Shown here piece by piece: positions 7,578 through 59,892 of a stretch of 64,000 nt of DNA. Made by a program: the position numbers and the translations under genes. Location: contig DJCU01000001.1 of assembly GCA_002430725.1 (NCBI GenBank), forward strand, positions 9,639-73,638. Reading direction: 5' to 3'. Below the pieces are notes generated by a model. It was not told the origin of the DNA. It ran no database searches and worked only from the letters and a program-made list of their open reading frames with translations. The stretch comes from Candidatus Gottesmanbacteria bacterium UBA5942 (GTDB lineage: Bacteria > Patescibacteriota > Microgenomatia > UBA10105 > UBA927). The stretch's first letter is position 1, and every line of letters begins with the position of its first letter.

Positions 7578-7614
7578 TAATACAAAAAATAGCATGAAGT
7601 GAGAAGAGGCGCTT

Positions 7615-26574: not shown

Positions 26575-27974
26575 GTCTCATCATGCGACAAGCCTCTGGT
26601 CGAACAACATCCATCATTTCATTTTTAGGTCTTATCGTATTCTTACCATTATTTATTATGGCAGTCGGCCAAACGATTACCCTGCTCTCGCGTGCATCGG
26701 GGAAACCAGCAGATATCACTGTCGACACGAAATCTCGTCTAGAGACCATAAACACAGACTTCTATCACGCGTTTGCGCAAGGGGGTGAAGAATCGAATGA
26801 CATGATCGCCTCGATTACTGCAGATACCCGAGCGCTCAAGCCAAAGCTTATACGACTCGACCATCTCTATGATCATTATGATGTCGTAGGGAGAGATGGA
26901 AGTGGACTCACATTTAACTGGTCGAAACTCGATGAAGTAGTAAACACAGTAATCGCAACGGGTGCCCGACCGGTATTAGCACTTTCTTATATGCCGGGTG
27001 TTATCGCACAAGACGGCAATATCATTAACCCCCCAAACGACTGGAATGAATGGGCGCTCGTCGTACAGCGCACTATCGAGCATTATAGTGGTAAAAGTGG
27101 ACGCAACTTAAATGGTGTGTATTACGAGGTATGGAATGAGCCTGATCTGGCACAATTCGGTTCATGGAAAATGGGCGGAGAAAAAAGCTATCTCACACTT
27201 TATCGATATGCAGCAATTGGCGCAAATAACGCTCAAAATGTAAACACATTTTATCTTGGTGGCCCATCAACAACAGGTCTTTACAAAAACTGGATCATAG
27301 GACTTGTTGAGTCAGGAAATAGAGTAAATTTCTTATCATGGCACACGTATCTTTCCGACCCTGAACGATTTGCAACCGATCAACGCAACATTATCCAATG
27401 GCTACTTCCCTATCCCAATTACACACTGCTCCCTAAACTTATCACCGAGTTCGGGTTTACAGGAAGCAAGAGTATTGGGTATGGCGGCAACTACGGCGCC
27501 GCTCATACAGCTGCGGTTATCCGACAGCTTATATCCGGCGGGCCTACCTATATTTTTAGTTTCCAGCTCAAAGACGGGCCAGGTCAGACAGATGGATCTG
27601 GCTGGGGACTTATTACCCACGATGATAATGGACTCAAGAAAAAACCACGATATTACGTCTATAATTTTCTCGATACCATGGCAGGTACTCGATTACTGCT
27701 TACTGGAGAAGGCTCATGGGTTACCGGGTTTGCTACTGTCAGGGATGATGTTATTCGGGTGATGCTCGTGAATTTTGATGCAAACGGAAGTCATAGTGAA
27801 CAAACGCCCGTAAAGTTTACCAACCTCGAAGTTGGTTCGTACACGCTTCGCACTCGGTTTATGCTTGGACGCGATACCAGCACAACGTTCGAAGCACAAG
27901 ACAGCACAATCGCTACAGATATCTTTATGCCAGCCCAGAGCATCGCGATACTGGAGCTTACGAAACAACCATAA
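26571..27974 (+). CDS. Clan GH-A glycoside hydrolase (GH39/GH5-like) with an N-terminal membrane anchor.
   Basis: YYEVWNEPD (acid/base Glu) and ITEFGFTG (nucleophile Glu) are spaced as in GH-A (beta/alpha)8 enzymes. Start overlaps the upstream stop as ATGA. Confidence 0.6.
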   Translation: MSLIMRQASGRTTSIISFLGLIVFLPLFIMAVGQTITLLSRASGKPADITVDTKSRLETINTDFYHAFAQGGEESNDMIASITADTRALKPKLIRLDHLYDHYDVVGRDGSGLTFNWSKLDEVVNTVIATGARPVLALSYMPGVIAQDGNIINPPNDWNEWALVVQRTIEHYSGKSGRNLNGVYYEVWNEPDLAQFGSWKMGGEKSYLTLYRYAAIGANNAQNVNTFYLGGPSTTGLYKNWIIGLVESGNRVNFLSWHTYLSDPERFATDQRNIIQWLLPYPNYTLLPKLITEFGFTGSKSIGYGGNYGAAHTAAVIRQLISGGPTYIFSFQLKDGPGQTDGSGWGLITHDDNGLKKKPRYYVYNFLDTMAGTRLLLTGEGSWVTGFATVRDDVIRVMLVNFDANGSHSEQTPVKFTNLEVGSYTLRTRFMLGRDTSTTFEAQDSTIATDIFMPAQSIAILELTKQP

Positions 27975-30025: not shown

Positions 30026-30577
30026 ATGCCTGCCAATCAAATACGCATTAATCTTTTGGGGACTCAAGATTTGGGTCACACACCATGGGGACGCCTCGTC
30101 TCGTGGGCAACCACATACGGAAGATACATCATGATCACCACTGAAATTGTGGTGCTTTTGGCATTTATATCCCGCTTCAGCCTCGATCGCAAAAATACCG
30201 ACCTAACTGAAGAGCTTGGTCAAAAACAGGCAATTATCGAAGCAAACCTTGAATTCGAACGGGAAATAAAATCATTACAGGCAAATCTTACGACCGCAAA
30301 AAAGCTTCTCACTGATCAAACAAAACCGGTAGAGCTTCTCAATCTTATAGAATCAACGCTCCCTGCCGATGTTTTTCTTTCATCACTCGATATTTCGCAA
30401 ACCAAACTGACACTCACCGCTTCGGCAGGCACGACACAAGGATTTGCACAATTTCTATCAAATATCCAATCGGTTCGCCAACTCCAAAATGTATTATTGG
30501 GAGACATACGGCGCGAACCCACGACAGGTATCGAATTTCAACTCACTGCTGATGTCGCAGGTGCACCAAAAAAATAA
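30026..30577 (+). CDS. pilN: Type IV pilus assembly protein PilN.
   Basis: N-terminal IRINLL motif (the PilM-binding INLLP signature), a single TM, a coiled coil and a C-terminal domain. Confidence 0.7.
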   Translation: MPANQIRINLLGTQDLGHTPWGRLVSWATTYGRYIMITTEIVVLLAFISRFSLDRKNTDLTEELGQKQAIIEANLEFEREIKSLQANLTTAKKLLTDQTKPVELLNLIESTLPADVFLSSLDISQTKLTLTASAGTTQGFAQFLSNIQSVRQLQNVLLGDIRREPTTGIEFQLTADVAGAPKK

Positions 30578-30580
30578 CGT

Positions 30581-31237
30581 ATGGCAAACACACCACTTAA
30601 TCAATCAAGTCTCGATACTCAATTCCACCGATATTACCAACGACTTACCCCTATCATGAAAAAACCAAAAATGCGGGCGTCTACGACCGCGGTTTTTTCG
30701 TTTTTAGCAATCTCGCTATTTACATGGTATGCCATACGACCTACCGCTCAAACGATTATTTTCCTACGCCGCGAAATTTCCGACAAAACAGCGCTCAATG
30801 AACAAATGGAAAATAAAATCACCGCACTCATAGAATCACAAGATACCTATGAAAAGATCAAAGAACGACTTCCGATAGTCCAACAAGCGCTCCCCCCAAA
30901 TCCAGATGGGGTTATACTGGCACGACAATTACGAAATCTCGCTGTTATCTCGGGTGCGTCCATTTCCGCCATACAAGTACCCAGTCTTCCTATCTTAGGA
31001 AAAGAGGCAACGCCAGGAGCAAAACTCGCGCCGCCCAAACCGCTCGAAGAATTTCCTGTGAACGTGGTGCTCACCGGCCCTTATGCATCACTAAAAACAT
31101 TTATTGATGGATTACTGACGCTTCGGCGCATTACATCTATCGACACCATTAATATACGACCAGCCCTTCGACAAGGGCTTTCTCTCGATTCATTACAACT
31201 ATCTATTAAGATACAATCGTATTACTCAACACAATAA
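30581..31237 (+). CDS. pilO: Type IV pilus assembly protein PilO-like.
   Basis: Short cytoplasmic N-terminus, a TM, a coiled coil and a C-terminal domain. Immediately downstream of pilN, in PilO position. Confidence 0.5.
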   Translation: MANTPLNQSSLDTQFHRYYQRLTPIMKKPKMRASTTAVFSFLAISLFTWYAIRPTAQTIIFLRREISDKTALNEQMENKITALIESQDTYEKIKERLPIVQQALPPNPDGVILARQLRNLAVISGASISAIQVPSLPILGKEATPGAKLAPPKPLEEFPVNVVLTGPYASLKTFIDGLLTLRRITSIDTINIRPALRQGLSLDSLQLSIKIQSYYSTQ

Positions 31238-31241
31238 CACT

Positions 31242-31439
31242 ATGGACGAAGAACGGGATTTATTACTTGTTGCAGTATTTACGACACTCACGATATTTTT
31301 GTGGGTATTTTTCGAATTGGTAAAAACATCCAAAACATCGTCAATTGCCACCCCACTTCAGCAAGTCGTGAGTCCACTCACCAGCAAAATTGAAGTAGAG
31401 GTAATTGATGAACTTGAAAAAAGAAGCACATTAGATTAA
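31242..31439 (+). CDS. Small single-TM hypothetical protein in the pil cluster.
   Basis: 65 aa, LLLVAVFTTLTIFLWVFFELV hydrophobic segment, tightly packed between pilO and the next gene. Confidence 0.35.
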   Translation: MDEERDLLLVAVFTTLTIFLWVFFELVKTSKTSSIATPLQQVVSPLTSKIEVEVIDELEKRSTLD

Positions 31440-31443
31440 TGAT

Positions 31444-32733
31444 ATGCAGGAGCGAAAAATTCCAACACTCATCGGATTATTATTAGTAGCCATCGCAGTC
31501 ATGGTATTCCGATTTGCGTTCGATCGTATCAGCCCATATATGTCGCGGGCATCAGCAATACAGTCGCCCCAAAACGTAACCATCAGCAATATTACTGACA
31601 CAGCATTTACTGTGTCATGGCTTACACAAGAACAGACAACGGGGGCAATTGTTGTTGAAGGCATCACGTCTCCTTTTTATGACGATCGTCAACTAACACC
31701 GTCCTCCTCGTCAACGAAACGAGAAGAGTTATTTTTTACTCATAGTGTTTCTATAAGAAATAGTAATCCAGACACCACATATAAATTCCGGATATTGTCC
31801 GGAGGTAAAATCTATACAGATAATGGCAACGCGTACGAAGTGCGCACAGCTCCGCTACTCAATGGCACTGGAACAAATTTAGAACCAGCGTATGGTCAAG
31901 TAACAACGCCTACAGATTTACCAGCCGAAGGCTCACTCGTCTACTTAACCATGACAAACGGGCAAACACTTTCTACCCTTGTTAACACGTCTGGTTCGTG
32001 GGTCATCCCGCTTAACCTTGTCCGCACACAAGACTTAACGAGGTTTATCGAACCTGCCGAACGCATCGATGAATCTATTGTCATCCGTTCACCAGAGGGT
32101 GAAGCCTCTGCGCTCACCGATAGCCTCAATGATAATCCCGTACCTGCGATGACTATCGGTAAAACATACGATTTTAGAAAAATTCAGGCTAACAATCTCA
32201 ATGAAAACAAGAAACTTGCCGAAGCCCCCCCTGCGGTTCTCGGTACGCAAACAAGTCAGGCTGCGCAAACCATCGCAATCACAAAACCAGCGCAAGGGGC
32301 GGCAATACCTTCAAATTTACCGCTCATTCAGGGTACTGGACTACCAGGTAAAAACGTTTTGGTAGTGGTAGGGATACAAAATCCGCTCAGCGCTTCCGTT
32401 ACTGTGGGGGCAGATGGTATTTGGCGATACACCCCCGAACGCCCACTACATGAAGGGAAACAAAGCGTCACTATCACCACTCAAAACGCCCAAAATCAAA
32501 CAAAGGCTATTACACATACCTTTGAAATCCTTAAAAGTGGAACACAGGTGTTGGGCGATGCTACCCCATCAGCAACCATAGAACCTACCCCAACACTCGA
32601 TGAAACACCTTCACCTACTGCAACACTCACCGGAGAAGAAATGCCTACAAGCGGCAATGAGCTGCCGCTCATCATCATGCTTATACTCGGTGCTACATTA
32701 TTATTAGGCGGAGGCAGCTTACTGTTTCTCTAG
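31444..32733 (+). CDS. Membrane-anchored surface protein with FN3-like and Ig-like domains and a C-terminal TM. The N-terminus resembles a degenerate type IV prepilin leader.
   Basis: NVTISNITDTAFTVSWLTQEQTTGAIVV is FN3-like. C-terminus PLIIMLILGATLLLGGGSLLFL. N-terminal RKIPTLIGLLLVAIAV aligns with the KGFTLIELLVV pilin consensus but lacks the Gly and Glu. Confidence 0.5.
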   Translation: MQERKIPTLIGLLLVAIAVMVFRFAFDRISPYMSRASAIQSPQNVTISNITDTAFTVSWLTQEQTTGAIVVEGITSPFYDDRQLTPSSSSTKREELFFTHSVSIRNSNPDTTYKFRILSGGKIYTDNGNAYEVRTAPLLNGTGTNLEPAYGQVTTPTDLPAEGSLVYLTMTNGQTLSTLVNTSGSWVIPLNLVRTQDLTRFIEPAERIDESIVIRSPEGEASALTDSLNDNPVPAMTIGKTYDFRKIQANNLNENKKLAEAPPAVLGTQTSQAAQTIAITKPAQGAAIPSNLPLIQGTGLPGKNVLVVVGIQNPLSASVTVGADGIWRYTPERPLHEGKQSVTITTQNAQNQTKAITHTFEILKSGTQVLGDATPSATIEPTPTLDETPSPTATLTGEEMPTSGNELPLIIMLILGATLLLGGGSLLFL

Positions 32734-32740
32734 CAAAATC

Positions 32741-32760
32741 ACGCATGCATTGCGTTTTTG
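32741..32760 (+). terminator. Intrinsic terminator after the FN3 surface-protein gene.
   Basis: ACGCA-TGCAT-TGCGT hairpin followed by TTTTT. Confidence 0.55.
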
Positions 32761-32887
32761 GTATATCCCAATAACAAGCACTTGACGAAACGAGTAAAAA
32801 CCCGTTAGTCTGATAATAGGTGTACACTTTGTATTCGTAGGCTTACGCGACATATCCTAAGCCGAGAGTACGCATTTAACTAATCTT

Positions 32888-33955
32888 GTGCCAGACGATA
32901 TTTTAGACGCAGCTCAAAAAGCAATAAATGACGCAGCAAAAAACGCCGATGCAGGCGCAGTTCCTGCTGCTCCTCTAAACGAAACACCTGCACCACAAAG
33001 CGCACCGCTACCGCCTGAACCAGTCGAACCAGTAACACCCCCACCTGCAGAAATGCCGCAGTCATCACCGGTAACACCCGAAACACCAGCGTCAACAGAT
33101 GCTCCTACAACACCCACGCAGGCATCCACCGATATGACAAAAGAAGAAATGATGAATGAACTCCTTGGGTCAACGTCAGTCGCTGCCCCAGCGTCAGTGG
33201 TCGTTCCTCCTCCAGAAAAAAGTGGAAAACCGCACAGCGGAAGCTTGCCGCCCAAAAAAACTTCTAAGGTAGGTATTATCGCTGTTATCGCAGCGTTACT
33301 TCTGACGCTCCCAGTTGCGGTTTATTTCATATCACAACAAAACAGTCAGATCGCAGATATTAGAAATCGCGCTGCCTGGGATACGGTATACCAAGGCTGT
33401 ACCGTCAGTCCTGATAGTTGTAAATCACTCGGACCAGGCTGGTCGTGCCATTGTCAAAATGGAACAGCGTGCACCCACACCGAATGCGAATACGATATTG
33501 AACGGAACTGTAGAGACCAAGGGAGACAATACTGCTTGAATGTCTTTAACGGAAATGCCATGACATGTTGCGTTGAAGGCTATGTCTGTGGACCAAGCGG
33601 CGGCTGTGTCCCTGGTGGAGGTGGTGGCGATGATGATAGCGGTGATGATGACGATACGGAGCCAACTCCCACGCCCACCACAGGAATTACGCCAGTCTGC
33701 CAAAATATAAAACTCTACAAAAATGGCACACAGGTTACTGACCTTAACACCCTTCGCGCTGGTGACGAAGTAGTACTCGCTGTCAAAGGCAACCTTTCAC
33801 CAACGAAGGCACACTTTAGAGTTAACGGGTCTGGCTGGACAGAAACCACAACTAAAAATGCAAGCGATGAGTTTACATGGAGTTACACCATACCTGAAGG
33901 TGTACCTGACTTTGTTATAGAAGGCGAAGTGTTTACGAACGGAGCATGGAGATAA
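32888..33955 (+). CDS. Bitopic membrane protein: cytoplasmic Pro-rich N-terminus, one TM, an extracellular Cys-rich module, an acidic linker and a C-terminal beta domain. GTG start.
   Basis: TM VGIIAVIAALLLTLPVAVYFI. At least 14 Cys in CTVSPDSCKSLGPGWSCHCQNGTACTHTECEYDIERNCRDQGRQYCLNVFNGNAMTCCVEGYVCGPSGGCVPGGGGG. Acidic linker DDDSGDDDD. Confidence 0.5.
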   Translation: MPDDILDAAQKAINDAAKNADAGAVPAAPLNETPAPQSAPLPPEPVEPVTPPPAEMPQSSPVTPETPASTDAPTTPTQASTDMTKEEMMNELLGSTSVAAPASVVVPPPEKSGKPHSGSLPPKKTSKVGIIAVIAALLLTLPVAVYFISQQNSQIADIRNRAAWDTVYQGCTVSPDSCKSLGPGWSCHCQNGTACTHTECEYDIERNCRDQGRQYCLNVFNGNAMTCCVEGYVCGPSGGCVPGGGGGDDDSGDDDDTEPTPTPTTGITPVCQNIKLYKNGTQVTDLNTLRAGDEVVLAVKGNLSPTKAHFRVNGSGWTETTTKNASDEFTWSYTIPEGVPDFVIEGEVFTNGAWR

Positions 33956-34862: not shown

Positions 34863-35891
34863 CTATTGAAGCTTACTTTTTACGAATGTGTGTACTGCCT
34901 CAAAGCTTTCTTTTGGAAGAAGTACATAGCGCCCATACCACGAACTGGGGGGCGTATACAGCTGATCTTCTATCGATATCCGTTGCGTATTTTCCTTGGG
35001 TATCTGCAAAAACATCTTGCCTATTGTTAGTAGTTCTCCGATATTCAAATCGGTGTCTGTCGCTTCATCAAACGCGCCATATAATTTTTCTACCTCTCCG
35101 GGGTGAAGATAAATATCCTGAGATAATAGCTTTGATTTAAGCGCGAGCAACACTTCCTGTTGACGTCTCCCTCGTGCAAAATCACTTCCTTCGTCCCCTT
35201 CCGCATGCCTACTCCGCACATATTTAAGTGCCAACGCCCCATCCATCGTTTGCAAACCAGCATCAAAATGAAGTGGCTCATACCGGCAACCAAACTCAGG
35301 GTCTCCGCCACATTCATCATTCTCACGACCCGGAATAGGGAACTCTGTATCAGTAAAACTTTTTGGCACATCTATTTCAACCCCGCCCACAAGGTCTATA
35401 ACTTTCCGAAATCCTGAAAAATCCAACACTAATGCATATTGGATAGGAAGCCCTATCATGTCCGATACGATTGCTTTCGCAAGTATTAATCCGCCGCCTT
35501 TTTTCTTTAATTCTCCATAGTGATACGCGCTGTTTACCTTATCTTTGAGCGTATCGCTCCAAATATCACGAGGGACGGAAATCATCGCGAGTGTATGATT
35601 TTTTTCATGGAAAGATAACACAAGGATAGTATCAGTTAAATCAGTACCATCATGATCACCACCAGGAATACCCAAAAGCAAGATGTTTACTCGACCATCT
35701 ATTGGTTTTAAATCTGCGCCCGCATCAAACACCAACTTAAATAGTGTCGTGGGAGTGATACCTGTGGTTGACATAAAATTCTGGGAGATCGCTATGCCTC
35801 GAAGCAACGCATACCCCACCAGCAATATGCTGAGAGCAAGCACGACCCACGCTATTTTTGGCACATGAATACGGCGGATACGCGGTTCCAT
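34863..35891 (-). CDS. LytR-CpsA-Psr (LCP) family cell-envelope polymer transferase.
   Basis: N-terminal TM, LLGIPGGDHDGTDLTDTILVLS...ISVPRD LCP motifs. Confidence 0.8.
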   Translation of the reverse strand: MEPRIRRIHVPKIAWVVLALSILLVGYALLRGIAISQNFMSTTGITPTTLFKLVFDAGADLKPIDGRVNILLLGIPGGDHDGTDLTDTILVLSFHEKNHTLAMISVPRDIWSDTLKDKVNSAYHYGELKKKGGGLILAKAIVSDMIGLPIQYALVLDFSGFRKVIDLVGGVEIDVPKSFTDTEFPIPGRENDECGGDPEFGCRYEPLHFDAGLQTMDGALALKYVRSRHAEGDEGSDFARGRRQQEVLLALKSKLLSQDIYLHPGEVEKLYGAFDEATDTDLNIGELLTIGKMFLQIPKENTQRISIEDQLYTPPSSWYGRYVLLPKESFEAVHTFVKSKLQ

Positions 35892-36604: not shown

Positions 36605-38449
36605 ATGAAAGATGACCTCCTCAATGATTTAAACCCCGACCAGCAAAAAGCAGTGACGCACACCGATGGACCGGTGCTTATACTGGCCGGAGCAGGAAGC
36701 GGTAAAACACGAGTGCTTACGTGTAGAGTGGCATACCTTGTCGCAGAAAAAAAAGTGTCACCACACCACATCCTCATGGTGACATTTACCAATAAAGCGG
36801 CGAAAGAAATGAAAAATCGTATTCGTGCGCTTATCCATACGAAAGATCTTCCTTATGCCGGTACGTTCCACTCGCTCTGCGCGCTTATCCTCAGAGTGGA
36901 TGGGAAGCATATCAATATCTCGTCTAACTTCGTTATCTATGACGACCAGGATCAAATTGACGCCATCAAAGAAGTCATGAAAAAGCTTGATATTTCCCCC
37001 AAGCTCTATAATCCTCGTGCAGTACTTTCCACTATCTCGCAAGCAAAAAATGAGCTTATCCCCGCTTTAGAATACCCCAATCTCGCCCGCGGCAATTTTC
37101 AGGAAACGGTCGCGCGTGTGTATTTAGGATATCAAAAACTATTATTGGAAAACGAAGCGTTGGACTTTGATGACCTTCTTATGAAAACAGTCATGTTATT
37201 TAGAAGAAACCCCGAAGTCCTGGGTAAATACCAAGAAAAATACCACTATGTGTTAATCGATGAGTATCAGGACACTAACAAAGCACAATACGAACTCACC
37301 AAACAATTAAGTGCCCGGTGGAGAAATATTTGCGTTGTCGGAGACGCATCACAATCCATATATCGGTGGCGCGGAGCGGATTTTAGAAACATCACCAATT
37401 TTCGTACCGACTTTCCGGAAGTAAAAGTATTTAATCTTGAACAAAACTACCGGTCGACCCAAATGATCCTCAATGCCGCGTTTGGCGTCATTTCCAAAAA
37501 CACATCACACCCTATTCTCAAACTCTGGACAGACAAAAAAGGTGGCGACCACATCACGCTGTATGAAGCCCGAAACGAACAAGACGAAGCAACATTTCTT
37601 ATTCATATGATATTGCAGTCCGGTCGACCATTTTCTGACTTCGCGGTCCTTTATCGCACAAATGCACAGTCTCGGGTATTGGAAGAAGCATTTTTGCATG
37701 CTGGCGTCCCATACACATTGGTAGGAGGTACTCGATTTTATGAACGAAAAGAAATCAAAGACGTGCTTTCGTATTTACGATTACTTTCTAATCCCAAAGA
37801 CACCGTATCGTACAACCGGATAGAAAAACTTGGTAAAGGAAGAATGAAAAAATTTCTTTCATTTGCCGAGGAAATTACAAAAGAGAATAAACTGATACAG
37901 TTTACTACCCTCGAGCTCCTCGATAATACGCTGGAAGCTACCCACTATCTCGAACTGTATGACGCAAACGTAGAAGAAGAAGCCTATCGATTAGAAAACA
38001 TCAAAGAACTCAGGTCGGTGGCTACCGAATTTCCGAATCTAACCGAATTCTTAGAAAACGTGGCACTCGTAGAACAGGAATATACACCCGAGCGCGTCAA
38101 AGAAATGGGAGAAAATCGACAAGCCGTCACCCTTATGACTTTACATGCGGCGAAGGGACTGGAATTTCCTGTCGTTTCAATTGTTGGCATGGAAGAAGGA
38201 ATATTCCCCCACAGTCGTTCACTCATGGAAAAAGATGAAATAGAAGAAGAAAGACGACTTTGCTATGTAGGTATTACCAGAGCAAAAGAAAAGCTATATC
38301 TTACCTACGCCAACAAAAGATTATTCTTTGGTACTCGCACCCAAAACATGATTTCACGATTTATCGCAGATATTCCGGAAGCAACACTCGATCTACAAGT
38401 TTCACTGTCACAGGATCGGGGATTTCGGGATGACGATATGCTCCTTTAG
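36605..38449 (+). CDS. pcrA: UvrD/PcrA-family superfamily-1 DNA helicase, short form.
   Basis: Walker A ILAGAGSGKTRVLT, helicase motifs through VGDASQSIYRWRGA...YRST, and 614 aa. Confidence 0.85.
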   Translation: MKDDLLNDLNPDQQKAVTHTDGPVLILAGAGSGKTRVLTCRVAYLVAEKKVSPHHILMVTFTNKAAKEMKNRIRALIHTKDLPYAGTFHSLCALILRVDGKHINISSNFVIYDDQDQIDAIKEVMKKLDISPKLYNPRAVLSTISQAKNELIPALEYPNLARGNFQETVARVYLGYQKLLLENEALDFDDLLMKTVMLFRRNPEVLGKYQEKYHYVLIDEYQDTNKAQYELTKQLSARWRNICVVGDASQSIYRWRGADFRNITNFRTDFPEVKVFNLEQNYRSTQMILNAAFGVISKNTSHPILKLWTDKKGGDHITLYEARNEQDEATFLIHMILQSGRPFSDFAVLYRTNAQSRVLEEAFLHAGVPYTLVGGTRFYERKEIKDVLSYLRLLSNPKDTVSYNRIEKLGKGRMKKFLSFAEEITKENKLIQFTTLELLDNTLEATHYLELYDANVEEEAYRLENIKELRSVATEFPNLTEFLENVALVEQEYTPERVKEMGENRQAVTLMTLHAAKGLEFPVVSIVGMEEGIFPHSRSLMEKDEIEEERRLCYVGITRAKEKLYLTYANKRLFFGTRTQNMISRFIADIPEATLDLQVSLSQDRGFRDDDMLL

Positions 38450-38690: not shown

Positions 38691-39677
38691 ATGCTACAGA
38701 TTGATCCCACCTCACAACAACAATCCTCCACAGATATTAGAAACTGGAATAACAGCGCAACTCACCCACTCCAATCATGGGAATGGGGAGAATTCCGAAA
38801 AGCTATGGGTATCGATGTGGTACGCACCAAACATGGACAACTCACGTTTCATAACGTACCACATACGCCATGGGTTATCGGATATTTTCCTAAAGGCCCA
38901 AAACCTACGTCTCAAATGCTCCACGATCTTCGACTACTCGGCGCATCAAAGCATGCCATCTTTATACAATTAGAGCCAAATATTGCAGCATCGAAAAACA
39001 CGCTCACACTCCCTGAACTCCGCGCTTCACATCACCCGCTTTTTACAAAATACACATTTGTATTAGACCTCAATAAATCCGAAGAAGAACTTTTGAAAGC
39101 AATGCACTCCAAAACCCGATATAACTTGCGCATCGCGCAAAAACATGGAGTTTCAGTAACCGAAGATAATTCCGAGAAAGCATTTGCTGCCTACCTCCGA
39201 CTCAATGAAGAAACAACCGGAAGACAGGGGTTTTTTGCACATAACAAAACGTACCATCAAACCATGTGGCGTATTATGAAAGACGCTGGTATCGCACATT
39301 TATTTACCGCGACATACAAAGGAGAAATTCTCGCAGCATGGATATTATTTGCCTGGAATAAAACACTTTATTATCCGTACGGTACATCATCACGACAGCA
39401 CCGCGAAGTTATGGCTCCGACACTGCTTCTCTGGGAAATTGCAAAGTGGGGCAAGGCAAACGGCTATACATCATTTGATCTGTGGGGAGCTATGGGGCCA
39501 GAACCAGACCCCGACGACCCGTGGTTTGGGTTTCATCGGTTTAAACAGGGATTTAATCCGCTTCTCGTAGAACACGTAGGTTCTTTTGATCTCGTGATCA
39601 ACCCGCTTTTATACAAACTGTATACTCTGGCAGATACCATACGGTGGTTTCTCCTCAAGCGAGGTCTCAAAAGCTAA
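38691..39677 (+). CDS. FemAB-family aminoacyl-tRNA-dependent peptidoglycan peptide-bridge transferase.
   Basis: About 330 aa with a tandem GNAT-like Fem fold, N-terminal WEWGEF and conserved C-terminal KGFTKFK-like region. Confidence 0.65.
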   Translation: MLQIDPTSQQQSSTDIRNWNNSATHPLQSWEWGEFRKAMGIDVVRTKHGQLTFHNVPHTPWVIGYFPKGPKPTSQMLHDLRLLGASKHAIFIQLEPNIAASKNTLTLPELRASHHPLFTKYTFVLDLNKSEEELLKAMHSKTRYNLRIAQKHGVSVTEDNSEKAFAAYLRLNEETTGRQGFFAHNKTYHQTMWRIMKDAGIAHLFTATYKGEILAAWILFAWNKTLYYPYGTSSRQHREVMAPTLLLWEIAKWGKANGYTSFDLWGAMGPEPDPDDPWFGFHRFKQGFNPLLVEHVGSFDLVINPLLYKLYTLADTIRWFLLKRGLKS

Positions 39678-39688
39678 ATCATACCATC

Positions 39689-40516
39689 ATGGAAATACAA
39701 CAATCGCCTTATTACGCGAGCTTTATCCGATCGCTCGGGTGGATAATTGAAACGGTCGACAACAGTACTATTTTTATTAAACCCTTTCCGATTATTGGCG
39801 GCCTCGCCAAAATCCAACGGGTCACCACGCTTCCATCCGTAAAAAAACTTATCCCTCTCCTTAAAAAATATGGGGTACGCACTATCGCTATTGAACCAGA
39901 TAGAAATGTAAGCCAAACATCACTATCCCTTTGGTGCAGCCATATCCCACGACATATAAAAATAAATAAAGACCCTTATATCCCTACAAAAACTATTCGC
40001 GTAGATCTTACCCCAAACGAGCAAGAGATATTTCATCGATTTTCAGAGGCAAAACGCCGCGCAGTGAGGCGGGCAGAAAAGTATGGGGTCACCATATCTG
40101 CAAGTGACGATATCAACACATTTCTTCGACTGAAAAGTGCATCTGCAGGTTTTTTGGGATTTATTACAACATCAGGTGTACACAAGCTTTGGCAAATTCT
40201 CCCAACCCAGCATAAAACCATACTTCTCGCACGAAATGAAAAACAGCAAGTTATTGGAGGCATCCTTCTCCTTTTTTGGGAAAAAATTGCCTATTATTGG
40301 ATTGCGGGAGCATTGCCGGAAGGCAAAAAAATGTTTGCACCCACACTCCTTGTTTGGGAAGCGCTGAAAGAATCAAAAAAGAAAAAATGTACTGCGTTGG
40401 ATTTTGTCGGTGTATGGGATGAGCGCAAACCGAAAAGTAATCACGAATGGAAAGGGTTTACCAAATTCAAAGAAGGATTTGGGGGATACGAACTCTACTA
40501 CCCTCTCGCTTCCTAA
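39689..40516 (+). CDS. Second, shorter FemAB-family paralog.
   Basis: C-terminal ...EWKGFTKFKEGFGG matches the Fem family. Overlaps or abuts the upstream Fem gene. Confidence 0.55.
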   Translation: MEIQQSPYYASFIRSLGWIIETVDNSTIFIKPFPIIGGLAKIQRVTTLPSVKKLIPLLKKYGVRTIAIEPDRNVSQTSLSLWCSHIPRHIKINKDPYIPTKTIRVDLTPNEQEIFHRFSEAKRRAVRRAEKYGVTISASDDINTFLRLKSASAGFLGFITTSGVHKLWQILPTQHKTILLARNEKQQVIGGILLLFWEKIAYYWIAGALPEGKKMFAPTLLVWEALKESKKKKCTALDFVGVWDERKPKSNHEWKGFTKFKEGFGGYELYYPLAS

Positions 40517-47876: not shown

Positions 47877-47885
47877 TGGTATAAT
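47877..47885 (+). promoter_or_regulatory. Extended -10 element (TGgTATAAT) 13 nt upstream of the GT2 gene ATG.
   Basis: TGGTATAAT at 47877-47885 and ATG at 47899. Confidence 0.4.
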
Positions 47886-47898: not shown

Positions 47899-49380
47899 AT
47901 GCGCCAGATATTTTTGCGCTACCCCAATAAAACGTTGCGGCTTTTTGAAATAGCGATTCCTCTATTTTCGTGGTTTATTATCACGCTTCCTTTGTGGCTT
48001 TCGTTCTGGCATCCTGCTTTAGTCGCGTATCTTATTATTACGTTTGACGTGTACTGGTTTTACAAGTCAGTCACCCTCGTCATTTTTGCAGTCCGCTCGT
48101 TTGTCACGTTCACCGCACACGCTGCTATAAATTGGCTTGCACAAGCAAAAAGTCTTCCAAATTTTGAACATATCTGGCACGTTATTATCATTCCTGAATA
48201 CCAAGAACCCTTGCATATTCTCAAGCGCACGCTCGAAAATTTAGCAAACCAAGATTTTCCGCGTGAACGGATGATTGTAGTACTCGCAACGGAGGCAAAA
48301 GATACAAATAGCGCGGAAACTGCTACACAACTAAAAAAAGAATTTGGCAAACGATTTGGTCATTTTCTGGTAACCAAGCATACATTGGTCGCAGGTGAAA
48401 TCGCAGGAAAATCGTCCAACATGGCACACGCAGCCAAACAAGCTGCTCTGCTTATTCATTCCAAAAAAATTCCTCTTCCCTGGGTCACCGTTACTTCATG
48501 TGACGCGGATGCCCTTCCTCATCCAAAATATTTTTCCGCATTGGCTTACCAATTTTTGAAAGACCCTGAACGTCACGATCATTTTTATCAAGGAAGCATC
48601 ATGTTTTATAACAATATTTGGCGTATACCGCTCCCTTATCGGTTTCTTAATACGCTTAACAGCATGTGGAACCTTGCGTTTTTATCACAGCAATCACGAC
48701 TTATTAATTTTTCTACCTACTCACTTTCTTTTCAAACCGCCGCCTCGGTGGGCTATTGGGCGGTAGATGTCATACCAGAGGATTACCACATGTTTTTTAC
48801 CGTATATTTTGCCCGAGGTGAACGCGTATCGGTACAACCAATATTTCTTCCAATACTGGTAGATGCCGCAGAAAGTACTGGATTTTTCCGTACATTCATA
48901 AATCAATATGAACAATCCAAACGATGGGCATGGGGTGTTTCTGATATTCCCTACGTTATCCGAGAAGCTTTCCTGCATCCAGAAATTAAACTTTCGGATC
49001 GCGTGCGAAGAGTTGCATCACTATTAGAGCATCATCTCCTCTGGCCAACAAATTGGTTTATCCTCACCCTTGGAAGCACAGTGCCACCGCTCATTAATCA
49101 AGATTTTGCACGAACAGTACTCGGACATAATCTCGCACGCATTTCTTCGGGGATACTCACGCTTTCAACTATATTTTTGATTATCGTCTTTATTATTGAC
49201 TGGCGTATTAAGCCTCCGCCACCCAAATCATATCCCAAGTGGAAATTACCACTTTTGTATCTCCAGTGGTTAACACTTCCCATTATTTCATTTTTTCTCT
49301 CGGCACTCCCAGGGCTCGATGCTCACACGAGGTTGCTTCTGGGTAAACGACTGGAATACCGAGTGACGGAAAAGATATAA
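47899..49380 (+). CDS. Membrane-embedded processive family-2 glycosyltransferase (cellulose/chitin/hyaluronan-synthase-like).
   Basis: Two N-terminal and several C-terminal TM helices. VIIPEYQEP, TSCDADAL (DxD), PEDYHM (TED-like) and YEQSKRWAWG (QxxRW) motifs. Confidence 0.75.
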   Translation: MRQIFLRYPNKTLRLFEIAIPLFSWFIITLPLWLSFWHPALVAYLIITFDVYWFYKSVTLVIFAVRSFVTFTAHAAINWLAQAKSLPNFEHIWHVIIIPEYQEPLHILKRTLENLANQDFPRERMIVVLATEAKDTNSAETATQLKKEFGKRFGHFLVTKHTLVAGEIAGKSSNMAHAAKQAALLIHSKKIPLPWVTVTSCDADALPHPKYFSALAYQFLKDPERHDHFYQGSIMFYNNIWRIPLPYRFLNTLNSMWNLAFLSQQSRLINFSTYSLSFQTAASVGYWAVDVIPEDYHMFFTVYFARGERVSVQPIFLPILVDAAESTGFFRTFINQYEQSKRWAWGVSDIPYVIREAFLHPEIKLSDRVRRVASLLEHHLLWPTNWFILTLGSTVPPLINQDFARTVLGHNLARISSGILTLSTIFLIIVFIIDWRIKPPPPKSYPKWKLPLLYLQWLTLPIISFFLSALPGLDAHTRLLLGKRLEYRVTEKI

Positions 49381-49392
49381 TAAATACAACGT

Positions 49393-50709
49393 ATGTTGAA
49401 TCAATTACTCTCCCACACACCATTGCTCTATTTGGTGCAAAGTTTATGGCGAGACGAAGCATTTTCTATCCTCGCTTCACAGCAACCGCTTTCATTTATT
49501 GCGACAAAATTAGGATTTGAGCCACCTGTATACTACACACTGCTTCATTTCTGGATAAAATTATTCGGAACAAGTGAAGTTGCTGCAAGAAGCTTATCGG
49601 TGTTGGGTTTTCTGATGGCGACTATCCTCATTATAGAGTGGGGACACACCATGTACAAAAAACATTGGCTCGCGTGGTATCTGCCGCTTATTTTTTTCCT
49701 TAACCCCATGTTGCTGTATTACTCGTTTGAAGTACGCACGTATGCATGGTATACATTTTTTGCAACCGCAATGCTTGTTACCTTTATCGAAAAGAAATGG
49801 CGATGGTTTATCGCATCTGCAGTATTAGGATTTTATACACATGTCTATCTGCTTCCATTTTTTGGCACGCTCGTTTTACATTATCTCTGGACAAATAAAC
49901 CAACACGTAAATCATTGTGGACGTTTATAAAAAAAGATAAAGGACTTCATGCATTAGCGATTGCGGGAGCATTCATGATCCCATGGGTAGTAAAAGCTGC
50001 TCTAGAGGCAACACGCCTCAAGAGTTCATGGTATTTCCCGGTCGATTGGCAACTCGTGAAGTCTGCACTCGGAAACTTGTTTGTCGGCTATGAAGGTACT
50101 CCCTGGTACGGATGGAAGTATACATATTACCTTTCACTCGGCATTATCGGGGCTTCGCTCTTTGCACTAAAAGACAAAGCACAGCGCCGCCGAAATCTGC
50201 TATTTATCCTGTTTGGTGCATTACCGCTTGTTGTCATCATCGCTGCGTCATTTATAAAGCCGCTTTATGTAAACCGATACCTGTTGCCCGTTACGATCGC
50301 AGAGGTACTTATTGTCGTAGCAGCATTAGCAGCGATAAAACAGACGATTATCCAAAAAATTGCAGCAGGAGCAATACTTGCAGGCATCCTTTGGTTTAAT
50401 TGGTGGTATTCGCCATATCATGCAAAACCTCCAATTCGCACGACATTTGAACAAATATACACACTTGAAAAACCCGGTGACCTTATCCTCGCTTCGGATT
50501 CGCTTATTTATCTCGAAGCGCTCTACTATGCAAAAGATAAAAATAAGGTATATCTCTATAACCCAAATAATAACGAATTCCCCTGGTACGTAGGAGACGC
50601 ACTTATTACCCCATCTCGCATGATCCGCGATTACCCCGTTTACCCCAAGCGTGGCTTTTTGGTATATCCTGATACTACATTTGAAATTGTCTACCAAATG
50701 CCTTTATGA
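49393..50709 (+). CDS. GT-C fold polyprenyl-phosphate-sugar-dependent glycosyltransferase (ArnT/PMT-like).
   Basis: Polytopic membrane protein of about 11 TM helices with the first-loop acidic motif WRDEAF typical of GT-C (GT39/GT83-like) enzymes. Confidence 0.6.
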   Translation: MLNQLLSHTPLLYLVQSLWRDEAFSILASQQPLSFIATKLGFEPPVYYTLLHFWIKLFGTSEVAARSLSVLGFLMATILIIEWGHTMYKKHWLAWYLPLIFFLNPMLLYYSFEVRTYAWYTFFATAMLVTFIEKKWRWFIASAVLGFYTHVYLLPFFGTLVLHYLWTNKPTRKSLWTFIKKDKGLHALAIAGAFMIPWVVKAALEATRLKSSWYFPVDWQLVKSALGNLFVGYEGTPWYGWKYTYYLSLGIIGASLFALKDKAQRRRNLLFILFGALPLVVIIAASFIKPLYVNRYLLPVTIAEVLIVVAALAAIKQTIIQKIAAGAILAGILWFNWWYSPYHAKPPIRTTFEQIYTLEKPGDLILASDSLIYLEALYYAKDKNKVYLYNPNNNEFPWYVGDALITPSRMIRDYPVYPKRGFLVYPDTTFEIVYQMPL

Positions 50710-51095
50710 AATTCACCCTTCCCGTTTCTCCTCCACAAGAATTACTCCAAGGGATTGGCTCGACAAAAATGACATGGGAGTATCGATGGGCAACAAATGC
50801 AGTTATTACTCAACTCATCGTGGGAAGCGGAGTCCTTGCATGGTTTTGGAGATTTTTACCTCCCGAGATACCCCTTTGGTATAGTCGACCATGGGGACAG
50901 GAACGATTAGCCTCTCCATGGTTTCTTTTGTTGCCGATGGCGACTGCCATAGTGGTTTACCTTATTAACCTTTTGCTTATCGCCAAATTTGCATCACAAC
51001 ACCCCATGTTTACTCGCGTACTCCTCCTTACTTCACTCCTTGTATCGTGCTTAAGTGGCGCTATGGTTATACGCATTATTACACTTATAAGTTAA
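50706..51095 (+). CDS. Small three-TM membrane protein, translationally coupled to the GT-C gene (ATGA overlap).
   Basis: 129 aa, hydrophobic helices, start overlaps the upstream stop. Confidence 0.45.
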   Translation: MKFTLPVSPPQELLQGIGSTKMTWEYRWATNAVITQLIVGSGVLAWFWRFLPPEIPLWYSRPWGQERLASPWFLLLPMATAIVVYLINLLLIAKFASQHPMFTRVLLLTSLLVSCLSGAMVIRIITLIS

Positions 51096-51097
51096 TG

Positions 51098-52180
51098 ATC
51101 GAATTCCTTCCATCACTACTTGCTGCCGCGCTCATTACCTTCGGCTTAACACCGCTCGTTATCAGATTTGCCCGCCAGCATGGTCTCGTCGATGACCCAA
51201 AGCATCGATACCACCCTGCGCATACGCATAAAGGTGTTATTCCTCGGGCAGGAGGGTTAGCGCTATTTTTGGGCATTGCCACCATGATGCTTATAGCACT
51301 CCCTATGAACCCTCAAATCATGGGAATTATTGTCGGAAGCGTTATTCTCATGATTGTCGGGCTATTTGATGACAAACGGGACGTAAACCCATATATACGA
51401 CTCGGAACAAATATTTTGGTTGCGATAATAGTCGTTGCCACTGGGAGCAGTATCCCATTTATCACAAACCCGCTTACCGGTGGTGTACTACCACTCTCAA
51501 TATGGAGCTTTGCCATAGAGCTAGGTGGCAACAGTGTCGTTATCGGTCTTCCCCACTTTTTGGCAATTATCTGGATAGTGTGGACTATGAACATTATTGG
51601 GTGGTCTGCCGGAGTTGACGGACAAATGCCTGGATATGTCGCAATCTCTGCTTTTATATTAGGGCTTTTATCTCTTCGGTATAGTTTGCTTGATGCCAAC
51701 CAAATTTGGGTAACGATACTCGCATTTATTGTCGCTGGAGCGTATGTAGGATTTCTTCCTTGGAATTTTTATCCCCAGAAAATTATGCCCGGGTACGGTG
51801 GCAAAACGCTGGCAGGATTTTTTCTCGCCCTCTTGGGTATTTTGTCTTTCGCAAAATTAGGGACTGCCCTGCTCGTTCTTGGTATCCCTATGTTAGACGC
51901 GGTGGCGACTCTTATAAGACGCATAGGGTTGAGAAAGTCGCCCGTACTTGCTGATCGGGGACATCTTCACCACCGACTATTGGACTTAGGGTGGAGCAAG
52001 CCAAAAATCGCCTTGTTTTACTGGGGAGTCTCGGCTATACTTGGGCTGGTATCGCTTACAGTCACAAGCACACTAAAAGTATTCACTTTTGTTGCTGTAG
52101 CTGTAGCGCTATCCATGTTTCTCGTATGGGTCAGCTTCTTTACGCAATTCTCAAAGCAGCAAGACCACGACAGTGGCTAA
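51098..52180 (+). CDS. Polyprenyl-phosphate N-acetylhexosamine-1-phosphate transferase (GT4, MraY/WecA family).
   Basis: GLFDDKRD (DDxxD) and HLHHRL motifs. About 10 TM helices. Confidence 0.75.
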   Translation: MEFLPSLLAAALITFGLTPLVIRFARQHGLVDDPKHRYHPAHTHKGVIPRAGGLALFLGIATMMLIALPMNPQIMGIIVGSVILMIVGLFDDKRDVNPYIRLGTNILVAIIVVATGSSIPFITNPLTGGVLPLSIWSFAIELGGNSVVIGLPHFLAIIWIVWTMNIIGWSAGVDGQMPGYVAISAFILGLLSLRYSLLDANQIWVTILAFIVAGAYVGFLPWNFYPQKIMPGYGGKTLAGFFLALLGILSFAKLGTALLVLGIPMLDAVATLIRRIGLRKSPVLADRGHLHHRLLDLGWSKPKIALFYWGVSAILGLVSLTVTSTLKVFTFVAVAVALSMFLVWVSFFTQFSKQQDHDSG

Positions 52181-53064
52181 AAAACTTAGCGCTGTTCACT
52201 ACGATATTCTTTACAGGACACTTATTTAATACCTCTCTTCTTAGTGATTCTCTCCTCGGATTTGTCGCGTTCTGTTTTCTTTCCTCATCAAATTACATAT
52301 TAAATGACGTACTCGATGCCCCCGCTGACAGACGTCACCCGTTTAAAAAATTTCGCCCTGTCGCGAGTGGCAAACTACCGGTAAAAACAGCGTTACTTGT
52401 ATCTTTACTCCTCCTCGTTTCTGGATTAGGAATAGCGCAGATAATCGGTCAAACATTTTTTCTCTTTTCCCTGGTCTTTATCCTGCTGCAGTACTCGTAT
52501 TCGATTATCTTGAAGCACATATCTGTCATTGATATTGTCGCAATTACTGCAGGGTACGTACTTCGCGTCTACGCGGGAGAAGCGGCAAGTGGATATCATA
52601 TTTCTATCTGGCTTGCGCTTGCAGCATTATCGCTCGCACTATTTCTTGCTATCGGCAAACGGAGAGCAGAACTCACCCTAATCCAAGGCTCTGGAGACGC
52701 ATCACCCAAAGATACGAGGGCAGCATTATCGCACTATTCTGAAAAACTTTTGGATGCGTATACGTCTATGTTCGCCACCAGTACGTTTATCTCATACACG
52801 TATTTTACATTCCTTGAGCGCCCGATCACCCAGGGGCTTATATTTAAAAACTACAGTGACTTCGTTATCGGTATACCAGATCGCAAATGGATGATGATGA
52901 CCATACCATTTGTCCTATATGGCATTATGCGATACATGCAGCTTATTTATCATGGAAAAGGTGAGTCACCTGAGCAAGTGTTAACGACAGACTTACCACT
53001 CCTTAGCACTGTTATCCTTTGGACAGGGGCTGCATTTTTTGTCATCTATGGTATCGGGGGCTGA
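52126..53064 (+). CDS. UbiA-family prenyl(phosphate) transferase, possibly decaprenyl-phosphate phosphoribosyltransferase-like.
   Basis: NDVLDAPADRRHP (NDxxDxxxD) and ARPRQWLKNL N-terminus. About 8 TM helices. The start is inferred and overlaps the upstream gene by about 55 nt. Confidence 0.6.
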   Translation: MGQLLYAILKAARPRQWLKNLALFTTIFFTGHLFNTSLLSDSLLGFVAFCFLSSSNYILNDVLDAPADRRHPFKKFRPVASGKLPVKTALLVSLLLLVSGLGIAQIIGQTFFLFSLVFILLQYSYSIILKHISVIDIVAITAGYVLRVYAGEAASGYHISIWLALAALSLALFLAIGKRRAELTLIQGSGDASPKDTRAALSHYSEKLLDAYTSMFATSTFISYTYFTFLERPITQGLIFKNYSDFVIGIPDRKWMMMTIPFVLYGIMRYMQLIYHGKGESPEQVLTTDLPLLSTVILWTGAAFFVIYGIGG

Positions 53065-53632: not shown

Positions 53633-54514
53633 TTACTCTGTTTTATCCGCGTACTGGGAAGAAATCCATCCTTTGTTAGTGCCATCGTAAGAAATTTGAT
53701 ACCAAGAACTCTGCGTATTAAATAAGTGATATCGCTCACCGGGGTTCACTCGAGCGGCTTCAGTTGAAGAAGTAGAAGGCTCCATGCGTACCCGAAGAAA
53801 CCCTGTCGGTGTATCTTTGATAGTGACGTATGGTTTTTGTGGGACTGCAGATGATGTGGCAGTCGTGCCACCTGCAGCTACTGTTGGCGATGGTGTGACT
53901 CCCGCTGAAGATGTCGACTCACTTGTTGCAGGAACACCACCAGCAGAAAGCGCTAACTTCATGCTCGCGATGAGCTTGTACCCAGTCGTCAATTTTACTT
54001 TCATACTTCTCGTCAAAAATCCTGGGGAAGTAACGGTTAACGTGTGATCTCCTGCCTCTGCATCTGAAATCGTAATTGGCGAAATTCCTTTGGTGACGTC
54101 ATCCAAGACAACTGAGGCGCCGTCAGGGTTGGTGATCACCGAAAACTCTGGCTTGCCAGCAACGCTTTTTTCCAGCCACAGCACGTCTACCGCAGACGAA
54201 AGCTCAGATTCTGAAAGAATAGCGTTCACATAGGTAAGAAGATTAGGTCCTACCGATATTTTTGCCTGCCATGGAGCTACTTCTCCAGTGGTTGATTCGG
54301 CTACTAATCGGATTGTGTACTCACCTGCTGTCACTTTTTCCCGAAGAGGTGTACGACCGATGTGTTTGTTGTCCAAAAATACGCTCACTGTCGGTGTGGC
54401 GTCTACCCGCAACTCACCTTCTTTGGGTGCGCGGTTTCCTAATAACTTTACAGCTCCCACGATAACGAGGATAACAACAAGGAAAACGAGGAGAAAGCTG
54501 ATTTTACGCTTCAT
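53633..54514 (-). CDS. Membrane-anchored protein with two PEGA domains and a C-terminal bacterial SH3 domain.
   Basis: TM FLLVFLVVILVIVGAV. PEGA-like blocks (ATPTVSVFLDNKHIGRTPL; PDGASVVLDDVTKGISPITI). C-terminal GFLRVRMEPS...SSWYQISYDGTNKGWISSQY is SH3b-like. Confidence 0.55.
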   Translation of the reverse strand: MKRKISFLLVFLVVILVIVGAVKLLGNRAPKEGELRVDATPTVSVFLDNKHIGRTPLREKVTAGEYTIRLVAESTTGEVAPWQAKISVGPNLLTYVNAILSESELSSAVDVLWLEKSVAGKPEFSVITNPDGASVVLDDVTKGISPITISDAEAGDHTLTVTSPGFLTRSMKVKLTTGYKLIASMKLALSAGGVPATSESTSSAGVTPSPTVAAGGTTATSSAVPQKPYVTIKDTPTGFLRVRMEPSTSSTEAARVNPGERYHLFNTQSSWYQISYDGTNKGWISSQYADKTE

Positions 54515-54613
54515 AAATTGAGTTCGATCATACCACATCTGACAAGTTTCAGGCAATGTTACAGGCTCTCGCAAATTTGACTTTAGGGCTTTTTTACGCT
54601 ACAATACGCGGTA

Positions 54614-58206: not shown

Positions 58207-59874
<1,668 letters not shown>

Positions 59875-59892
59875 CTAATAAAATTTATAAAT

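Follow-up and report, generated by a model that had tools for sequence, protein, structure and literature searches.

A stretch of 64,000 nucleotides (nt) from contig DJCU01000001.1 of Candidatus Gottesmanbacteria bacterium UBA5942, referred to below as the window, carries at positions 47899-53064 an operon of five genes, here called A to E, which may represent a compact lipid-carrier-based pathway for the synthesis of an envelope glycopolymer. This reading is put forward tentatively, with a probability that we place a little below even. A preliminary description of the window had taken its host for a small-genome bacterium, likely of the Candidate Phyla Radiation (CPR), and the source is indeed a Gottesmanbacteria-type Patescibacterium with a genome of 1.17 Mb; the closest relatives in the locus scan were Candidatus Gottesmanbacteria, followed by Woesebacteria and Roizmanbacteria. 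The genes, with starts refined from the gene calls of the source genome and from the junction sequences, are the following:

47899-49380 (+): gene A, 493 aa, cellulose-synthase-like membrane-integrated GT2
49393-50709 (+): gene B, 438 aa, GT-C(A)-fold glycosyltransferase
50706-51095 (+): gene C, 129 aa, protein with three transmembrane (TM) segments, weakly DUF1648-like
51095-52180 (+): gene D, 361 aa, WecA/TagO-type polyprenyl-phosphate N-acetylhexosamine-1-phosphate transferase (PNPT), putatively transferring N-acetylhexosamine (HexNAc) 1-phosphate
52126-53064 (+): gene E, 312 aa, polyprenyl-phosphate 5-phosphoribosyltransferase (PPPRS, also DPPRS for decaprenyl phosphate), an Rv3806c orthologue
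47877..47885 (+): weak candidate extended -10 promoter element TGgTATAAT, read from the sequence

The preliminary description had proposed five membrane-protein genes in one orientation, abutting or overlapping at their ends, and five plus-strand open reading frames (ORFs) lie exactly within these limits, all of them with TM segments predicted by a hydropathy scan. Genes A and B are separated by 12 nt, B and C overlap in ATGA, C and D in TAATG, and D and E by 55 nt; judging from these junctions, A to E are translationally coupled. The end of the candidate promoter element is separated from the ATG of gene A by 13 nt, and the element was unlisted by the consensus promoter scan, which demands a -35 hexamer. 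The promoter and terminator scan was itself uninformative, with counts near those in shuffled sequence.

Families of the encoded proteins

All the motifs quoted in the preliminary description were found in the translations (DAD, PED and QSKRW in A, RDEAF in B, DDKRD and HLHH in D, NDVLDAPAD in E). Its assignment of the products to four enzyme types held up as well, with the processivity of A standing as a prediction and the link to arabinose finding no support.

The UbiA-family protein E had been likened to decaprenyl-phosphate phosphoribosyltransferase. It scores 219.7 bits against the equivalog model of this enzyme (NF008978, cut-off 207), and its best match in the PDB is Rv3806c (8j8j, 4.3e-33), with the next UbiA structure at 2e-9. 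The residues of Rv3806c that bind phosphoribosyl pyrophosphate (PRPP) are R22, K28, Y70, N73, D77, K87, R90, Q135, Y138, K143 and Y157, and other UbiA enzymes do not conserve the phosphoribose-binding residues (PMC10994848); in the alignment from the PDB search all of them (11/11) are identical in E. Because of the model score, the Rv3806c match and these identical residues, E is assigned by sequence as a PPPRS orthologous to Rv3806c. The protein carries the motifs NDVLDAPAD (residues 60-68) and RRHPFKKFRP (69-78). A quinone, heme or chlorophyll prenyltransferase was considered and rejected, as the models of heme O synthase, UbiA, MenA-like enzymes and chlorophyll synthase scored no more than 50 bits; both the model scores and the ranking of PDB matches place E apart from the quinone and heme enzymes.

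Protein D contains the motifs DDKRD (92-96), GVDG (173-176) and HLHH (290-293) and matches Pfam PF00953 (Glycos_transf_4) at 77.5 bits, above the cut-off of 27. Its best NCBIfam model is TIGR02380 (wecA, 94.8 bits, cut-off 326), which outscores the archaeal and bacterial MraY models, TIGR00445 (mraY) reaching 50.9 bits against a cut-off of 192; PDB chains of MraY match D at 6.5e-9. Since WecA is the closest model and D nevertheless stays below its cut-off, as it does below those of all these equivalogs, D can be called WecA-like, not a WecA equivalog, and the identity as MraY was rejected on its lower, sub-cut-off score. By family, D is probably a WecA/TagO-like polyprenyl-phosphate HexNAc-1-P transferase. 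The earlier assignment to this activity is in line with PF00953, DDKRD and HLHH, but its label 'GT4' reflects the Pfam name Glycos_transf_4 and not the CAZy family GT4.

Protein A consists of two N-terminal TM helices, a GT-A domain, interface helices and C-terminal TM helices. The motifs identified were D135, GKSSNM (170-175), DAD (202-204), Q231, FSTYS (271-275), PED (293-295), QSKRW (339-343) and YRVTEK (487-492). In an alignment of 56 homologues D135, D202xD204, E294-D295 and Q339xxR342W343 are invariant, as are V489, T490 and K492 of the C-terminal motif; in relatives of only 27-45% identity the DxD, the aspartate of ED, and the Q and R of QxxRW are still invariant. Bacterial beta-glucan synthases possess KAG, QxP[HQ], FFCGS-like and FxVTxK gating-loop motifs (PMC6821405). 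A comparable series occurs in A as GKSSN (KAG-like), Q231, FSTYS (FFCGS-like), RWAxG and, at the extreme C-terminus, the gating-loop-like YRVTEK (FxVTxK-like), matched by order and spacing, not by residue-level superposition. Pfam matches of A are weak (PF13641 and PF00535), its homologues carry PF13632, and the public annotation is 'glycosyltransferase family 2'. None of the curated synthase models of NCBIfam was reached by A (CelA, TIGR03030: 14.5 bits, cut-off 699). The same was true of ten distant relatives, with a single weak match to PgaC (TIGR03937, 22.7 bits, cut-off 422.3) in P0442; this distant relative of 672 aa also carries an inserted GxxExxY domain (TIGR04256, 107.8 bits).

Sequence-profile searches of the PDB with A, B and C yielded nothing useful, so a comparison of folds was needed. 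The structure model of A has a pLDDT of 70.7, above 90 in the GT domain and below 55 in the C-terminal TM helices. Its closest structural neighbours are PcManGT, BcsA, CesA1, CvHAS and XlHAS1, and the superposition on BcsA, CesA and the hyaluronan synthases (HAS) spans about 330-350 residues, interface and TM helices among them, the C-terminal TM part of the model being of low confidence. Dolichyl-phosphate mannose synthase (DPMS, 13.8), GtrB (12.9) and ArnC (12.4) align with A over the GT-A core alone, about 190 residues. The GT2 assignment of the preliminary description is therefore upheld by the D, DxD, ED and QxxRW residues and by the synthases as nearest folds, and A does not group with the DPM/DPG synthases. 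By its motifs, A may be processive and possess a translocation channel.

Two other roles of A may be considered here. It might be no polymerase, acting instead as a transferase of one or a few sugars to polyprenyl-PP-HexNAc, the Alg1-like activity suggested for PcManGT, a minimal cellulose-synthase-like enzyme, or to a membrane glycolipid, so that the operon would build a short lipid-linked oligosaccharide or lipoglycan that the GT-C enzyme extends or transfers to protein. This seems distinctly unlikely, given that relatives of only 27-45% identity still have a motif set like that which marks polymer-translocating synthases (PMC6821405), namely QxxRW and the AxG after it, a C-terminal [FY]xVTxK-like motif and one similar to FFCGS, and that A superposes with its interface and TM helices on BcsA, CesA and HAS. 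A very improbable role is that of a GtrB/DPMS-like polyprenyl-P-hexose synthase, with C as flippase and B as GT-C in a three-component system and D and E as unrelated neighbours. The set of a GT2, a small membrane protein and a GT-C does mimic GtrB/GtrA/Gtr* and CsbB/GtcA/YfhO, and some related loci retain A, a GT-C gene and C without D and E; the GT-A-only alignment with DPMS and GtrB points the other way.

Clustering at 50% identity divides the family of A into 2498 clusters at a threshold of E <= 1e-3, or 656 at the stricter E <= 1e-30. It is found mostly in Patescibacteria, where its length is strikingly constant (about 493 aa), with few members in Chloroflexota. Clear relatives of A (up to 506 bits) were observed in Chloroflexota-like genomes, on the high-GC metagenome contigs L089, L095, L101 and L134 and as protein P0342; there the gene stands by itself, lacking GT-C, PNPT and PPPRS partners and adjoining a trigger factor or BirA-like gene.

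The AlphaFold model of B is confident (pLDDT 91.9) and has the multi-TM fold of GT-C enzymes, closed at the C-terminus by a small alpha/beta domain. The motif RDEAF occupies residues 20-24, and its D21-E22 (nt 49453-49458) is invariant in the alignment of 56 sequences. The proposal of a GT-C enzyme with a first-loop DE motif was accordingly right as to the fold and the presence of the DE motif, but the canonical TM1 ahead of the motif is missing, because only about 18-20 residues precede D21-E22. The window protein has no Pfam match; PMT_2 was touched weakly by 10 of the 56 homologues, and some homologues are publicly annotated as 'GT39' or 'mannosyltransferase'. Judged by its modelled fold, B might use a polyprenyl-phosphate-sugar donor. 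A second, paralogous type of GT-C, B2 (455-557 aa), possesses the usual TM1, with EPYWYGDEG after it, and in more distant Microgenomates it substitutes for B or accompanies it between A and C:

B2 genes (EPYWYGDEG type): L084 9499-11001; L078 4337-5704; L082 1332-2753; L096 9493-10977; others

The only strongly conserved feature of protein C is a loop after TM1, LPPxVPLWYSxPWGxERLA (nt 50856-50912). PF07853 (DUF1648) was weakly matched by 6 of 24 homologues, with a best E-value of 4.7e-5, no match was found in the PDB, and a conserved catalytic Asp/His/Arg pattern was not seen in the homologues. A GtrA, SMR or MATE flippase and a PAP2 phosphatase were considered and rejected, as the 24 homologues gave no such Pfam match at E <= 1; a Lipocone/VanZ identity was also dropped, the source paper naming Patescibacteria and UbiA in unrelated contexts alone. 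With two exceptions, every locus in which A is followed by a GT-C gene also has gene C, and loci without a GT-C gene (L080 and L087) lack it. It is a candidate accessory protein or flippase for the GT-C step.

A possible route to an envelope glycopolymer

In the proposed pathway, D would act on the cytoplasmic side of the membrane, taking HexNAc-1-P from a UDP-sugar and loading it onto polyprenyl phosphate to give a polyprenyl-PP-HexNAc primer. A would then extend a beta-linked chain and carry it across the membrane, and in many relatives a soluble GT2 or GT4 encoded upstream of A might add an adaptor or side sugar. As A would both elongate and export the chain, no ABC or Wzx transporter would be needed, as in the synthase-dependent O-antigen route (WecA and WbbF). 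E would make polyprenyl-P-ribofuranose-5-P from PRPP, and a phosphatase and a flippase, possibly protein C, would deliver polyprenyl-P-ribose to the outer face, where the GT-C enzyme B would add pentofuranosyl residues from this donor to the exported polymer. The product might finally be coupled to peptidoglycan by the LytR-CpsA-Psr (LCP) ligase of the genome or stay lipid- or protein-linked. Ribofuranose is a likelier pentose than arabinose, since no epimerase was seen in the window.

Several genes of the window may be relevant to the last step:

34863..35891 (-): LCP ligase gene (PF03816, 113.9 bits), 12 kb upstream, outside the operon, beside triose-phosphate isomerase
28009-29661 (-): MurJ
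38691-40516 (+): two adjacent FemAB-family (peptidoglycan interpeptide-bridge) genes with a slight overlap
53633..54574 (-): gene for a membrane-anchored PEGA and SH3_3 protein (PF08308, PF08239), convergent with E

MurJ, the FemAB-like genes and the LCP ligase imply that peptidoglycan is made by the host and that a secondary polymer can be joined to it. LCP enzymes attach polyprenyl-PP-linked polymers, such as teichoic acids and arabinogalactan, to peptidoglycan (PMC7831098), and that of the window would be a candidate ligase for the operon product. The combination of TagO with LCP (PMC7831098) is a precedent for the proposed pathway. The PEGA and SH3_3 protein is possibly a wall-polymer-binding surface partner, or a mere syntenic neighbour. 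PilN- and PilO-like genes, followed by genes for fn3/Big_13-domain and unannotated proteins, were observed at 30026-33955 (+) and belong to a type IV pilus locus, whose pilin might serve the GT-C enzyme as an acceptor instead.

A bolder form of the proposed pathway would make its product the main secondary wall polymer of Gottesmanbacteria and related Microgenomates, an arabinogalactan-like molecule with a GT2-spun backbone on polyprenyl-PP-HexNAc and pentofuranose decoration by the TM1-less GT-C, C being a new type of flippase for lipid-linked sugars or a GT-C subunit. With no phosphatase in evidence, the sugar transferred might even be ribose-5-phosphate, which would make the wall polymer anionic and similar to teichoic acid. 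We consider it doubtful that all of this holds.

Conservation and modularity of the locus

The locus was scanned for in one genome per species, and the 80 best species-level loci were retained; architectures were counted in the 62 that had at least 5.6 kb downstream of A. The order A-B-C-D-E is found in 54 of the 62, in agreement with the synteny that the preliminary description had proposed to check, and four trivial variants bring this to 58/62. The remaining four are one each of ABCD, ADE, A-B2-C and A-B2-C-D-E. Median distances between the genes are 11.5, -4, +2 and -55 nt, the tight spacing being kept in about 70 genomes. As the same order recurs in related species-level genomes, the five-gene arrangement is not due to chance.

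A more distant set of metagenome loci was collected with a Chloroflexota-like relative of A as seed, 32 of them having enough room for comparison. A-(B and/or B2)-C-D-E occurs in 18 of the 32 (11 A-B2-C-D-E, 4 A-B-C-D-E and 3 A-B-B2-C-D-E), D without E in four, A with a GT-C gene alone in two, and A alone in eight, of which at least four (L089, L095, L101 and L134) are high-GC, Chloroflexota-like contigs. The core of the locus is A, one or more GT-C genes, C and D; E is frequent and dispensable at this position, and can be regarded as accessory to the core, since it is missing beside D in several related loci.

In 59 complete loci the median identity to the window proteins is 69% for E, 68% for A, 67% for the methionyl-tRNA synthetase (MetRS) encoded upstream, 63% for D, 59% for TatD, 54% for the PEGA protein, 49% for B and 39% for C. 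By these values, the cytoplasm-facing enzymes appear to be under housekeeping-level constraint, and the outward-facing B and C to diverge fast.

A soluble GT2 (about 236 aa, PF00535) is encoded directly upstream of A in about 30 of the 80 relatives, and a GT4 (about 400 aa) adjoins A in about seven; the genome of the window has neither beside A. Such variation of accessory genes is typical of surface-glycan loci.

Extra GT2 or GT4 genes beside A: L088 7263-7973; L028, L024, L017 and others at about 7260-7970; L080 6766-7968; L087 9505-10788

Two distant loci carry further genes after E. One (L146, 6215-7138) has a GalU-like UTP-glucose-1-phosphate uridylyltransferase gene, a hint of UDP-glucose supply, and the other (L136, 13571-14920) a third, PMT-like GT-C gene with the motif FDEVYH. 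Neighbours of the operon in the window were also considered as members of the system. The downstream NUDIX gene was rejected, as it is present in only four of the closest relatives. TatD, encoded upstream, was set aside as the missing phosphatase: it forms with MetRS a housekeeping pair that occurs widely, and A has a promoter-like element of its own ahead of it.

A number of observations weigh against a single pathway. Among the proteins, the sequence-profile search of the PDB with A gave no significant match to any solved synthase (E > 0.09), the TM region of its model is low-confidence, and PcManGT, its top structural match, is not an established polymer exporter. Neither a recognisable flippase nor a ribose-5-phosphatase turned up in the operon, elsewhere in the 64-kb window or in about 7 kb past its right end, and no DprE1/E2 (the pair of a flavin adenine dinucleotide (FAD) oxidase and a short-chain dehydrogenase/reductase (SDR)) or other epimerase is annotated over the same span; no DprE1/E2 pair adjoins E in the related loci either. 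We know of no experiment on any CPR member of these families. As to the locus, no E adjoins D in L071, L111, L140, L156 and L168, A, a GT-C gene and C occur without following D and E in L070, L073 and L082, and L080 has A-D-E with no GT-C gene or C. Since E, D with E, or the GT-C gene with C are absent in some loci, the modules are separable and the donor of the GT-C enzyme need not be the product of E. Of 69 genome loci 66-67 have the upstream MetRS-TatD pair, as do 31-34 of 40 metagenome loci, and the PEGA/SH3_3 gene adjoins E in 68 of the 80 related genome loci; because these neighbours are equally syntenic, gene order alone is weak evidence and in part phylogenetic inertia. It is translational coupling and biochemical coherence, not gene order, that carry the argument for one pathway.

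The same separability keeps alive an alternative that is possible, if on the unlikely side, namely that independent modules are merely co-located. A would then be an autonomous synthase of a free exopolysaccharide (beta-glucan or similar to poly-N-acetylglucosamine, PNAG) with no lipid primer, D would prime another polymer or a protein glycan, and E and B, perhaps with C, would form a self-contained system for the pentofuranosylation of type IV pilin (cf. TfpW of Pseudomonas aeruginosa), an S-layer protein or the PEGA protein. The classical synthases BcsA, PgaC and HAS work without a polyprenyl primer, and relatives with A-GT-C-C lacking D and E, A-D-E lacking a GT-C gene, A-GT4, or A alone (Chloroflexota-like) would fit such modules. 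PilN and PilO genes are present in the window, and PPPRS-dependent arabinosylation of pilin is among the work cited in PMC11127046. The translational coupling of the five genes is conserved, however, the full set stands together in most of the sampled lineages, and E overlaps D by 55 nt and does not adjoin B, all of which speaks against independent modules.

Elsewhere in the window, a Cohesin/Big_13-domain protein gene followed by a GH39 glycoside hydrolase gene (25531-27974, +) may encode a surface-anchored polysaccharide-degrading pair, and three EamA-family transporter genes are interleaved with CutA1, APH-type kinase and 2-hydroxyacid dehydrogenase genes (2583-7577, +). The sole Rfam match at the gathering threshold (38221-38317, +) was RF03531 (n00280, 'C. 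difficile sRNA included into helicase gene', 66.7 bits against 65.2); it lies inside a UvrD-type helicase ORF (36605-38449) and is probably conserved helicase coding sequence, not a small RNA. Three long ORFs (194-245 aa) at 58541-59878 (+) run antisense to the GroEL gene (58207-59862, -) and are almost certainly spurious.

Significance and comparison with known systems

Each enzyme of the operon belongs to a known superfamily, and their combination, with no recognisable flippase, phosphatase or epimerase, is undescribed; a literature search brought up no work on the cluster, nor any on PPPRS in CPR bacteria. The composition of the envelope of CPR/Patescibacteria is essentially unknown, and this envelope is the interface at which episymbionts attach to hosts and encounter phages. 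Across an order-level lineage of ultra-small bacteria the conservation of the operon equals that of a tRNA synthetase, and the operon leads to the concrete prediction of a polyprenyl-linked polymer bearing a PRPP-derived pentofuranose. If this is true, the PPPRS and GT-C route of pentofuranose transfer, known in Mycobacteriales and a few Proteobacteria, would extend to ultra-small bacteria. The analysis also flags three uncharacterised families, the 493-aa cellulose-synthase-like GT2, the TM1-less GT-C and its DUF1648-like partner, and turns the question of the CPR envelope into specific experiments.

The preliminary description had seen in the operon the logic of the mycobacterial arabinogalactan pathway, which comprises WecA, GlfT1/2, Rv3806c, Rv3807c, DprE1/E2, Rv3789, AftA-D/Emb and Lcp1. 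The likeness stands as far as it concerns the combination of PPPRS, GT-C, PNPT and GT2: both have a PNPT primer, a GT2 polymerase (predicted here), a PRPP-derived polyprenyl-P-pentose donor, GT-C transfer on the outside (also predicted) and an LCP ligase in the genome, and E keeps all the PRPP-binding residues of Rv3806c. The arabinose part did not stand, as the window contains no DprE1/E2.

A Salmonella system shows a similar polymerising step. In the O:54 antigen route, a primer made by WecA is used by the integral-membrane GT2 WbbF, which polymerises and exports the O antigen linked to undecaprenyl phosphate (Und-P) (PMC2841628). The operon resembles this system (WecA, WbbE and WbbF) in its WecA-type primer enzyme and membrane GT2, A being likened to WbbF by description, and in the small soluble 'adaptor' GT2 that adjoins the synthase in about 30 of the 80 relatives. 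Unlike the operon, O:54 has no GT-C/PPPRS module, and in place of lipid A-core the target of the operon product would be peptidoglycan, lipid or protein. Compared with BcsA, CesA, PgaC and HAS, A lacks a PilZ domain, a BcsB or PgaD partner and a curated equivalog match, and has its gating-loop-like motif at the extreme C-terminus.

The closer published analogue is not arabinan synthesis but the ribofuranose three-component system of Kelly et al. (2024), where the action of a PPPRS on PRPP, followed by removal of the 5'-phosphate, yields Und-P-ribofuranose; this donor is carried outward by a flippase, and alpha-ribofuranose is added to the finished polymer by a GT-C enzyme (PMC11127046). The flippase may be of the MATE, GtrA or SMR type and the 5'-phosphatase a HAD domain or PAP2, as exemplified by Citrobacter youngae O1/O2 with the PPPRS ORF15, a MATE flippase and a GT136 GT-C; epimerases (ORF13 type or DprE1/E2) turn the donor into that of xylofuranose or arabinofuranose (PMC11127046). 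The operon likewise encodes a UbiA-type PPPRS with a GT-C and lacks DprE1/E2, so that ribofuranose would be expected. It differs in lacking a phosphatase, whether as a fused HAD domain or as a PAP2 gene, in having a DUF1648-like protein with three TM segments instead of a MATE, GtrA or SMR flippase, and in that its GT-C has neither TM1 nor a carbohydrate-binding module (CBM). In addition, the module shares its operon with a synthase-type GT2 and a PNPT and is not placed beside an ABC- or Wzy-type O-antigen locus, and its host is a Patescibacterium.

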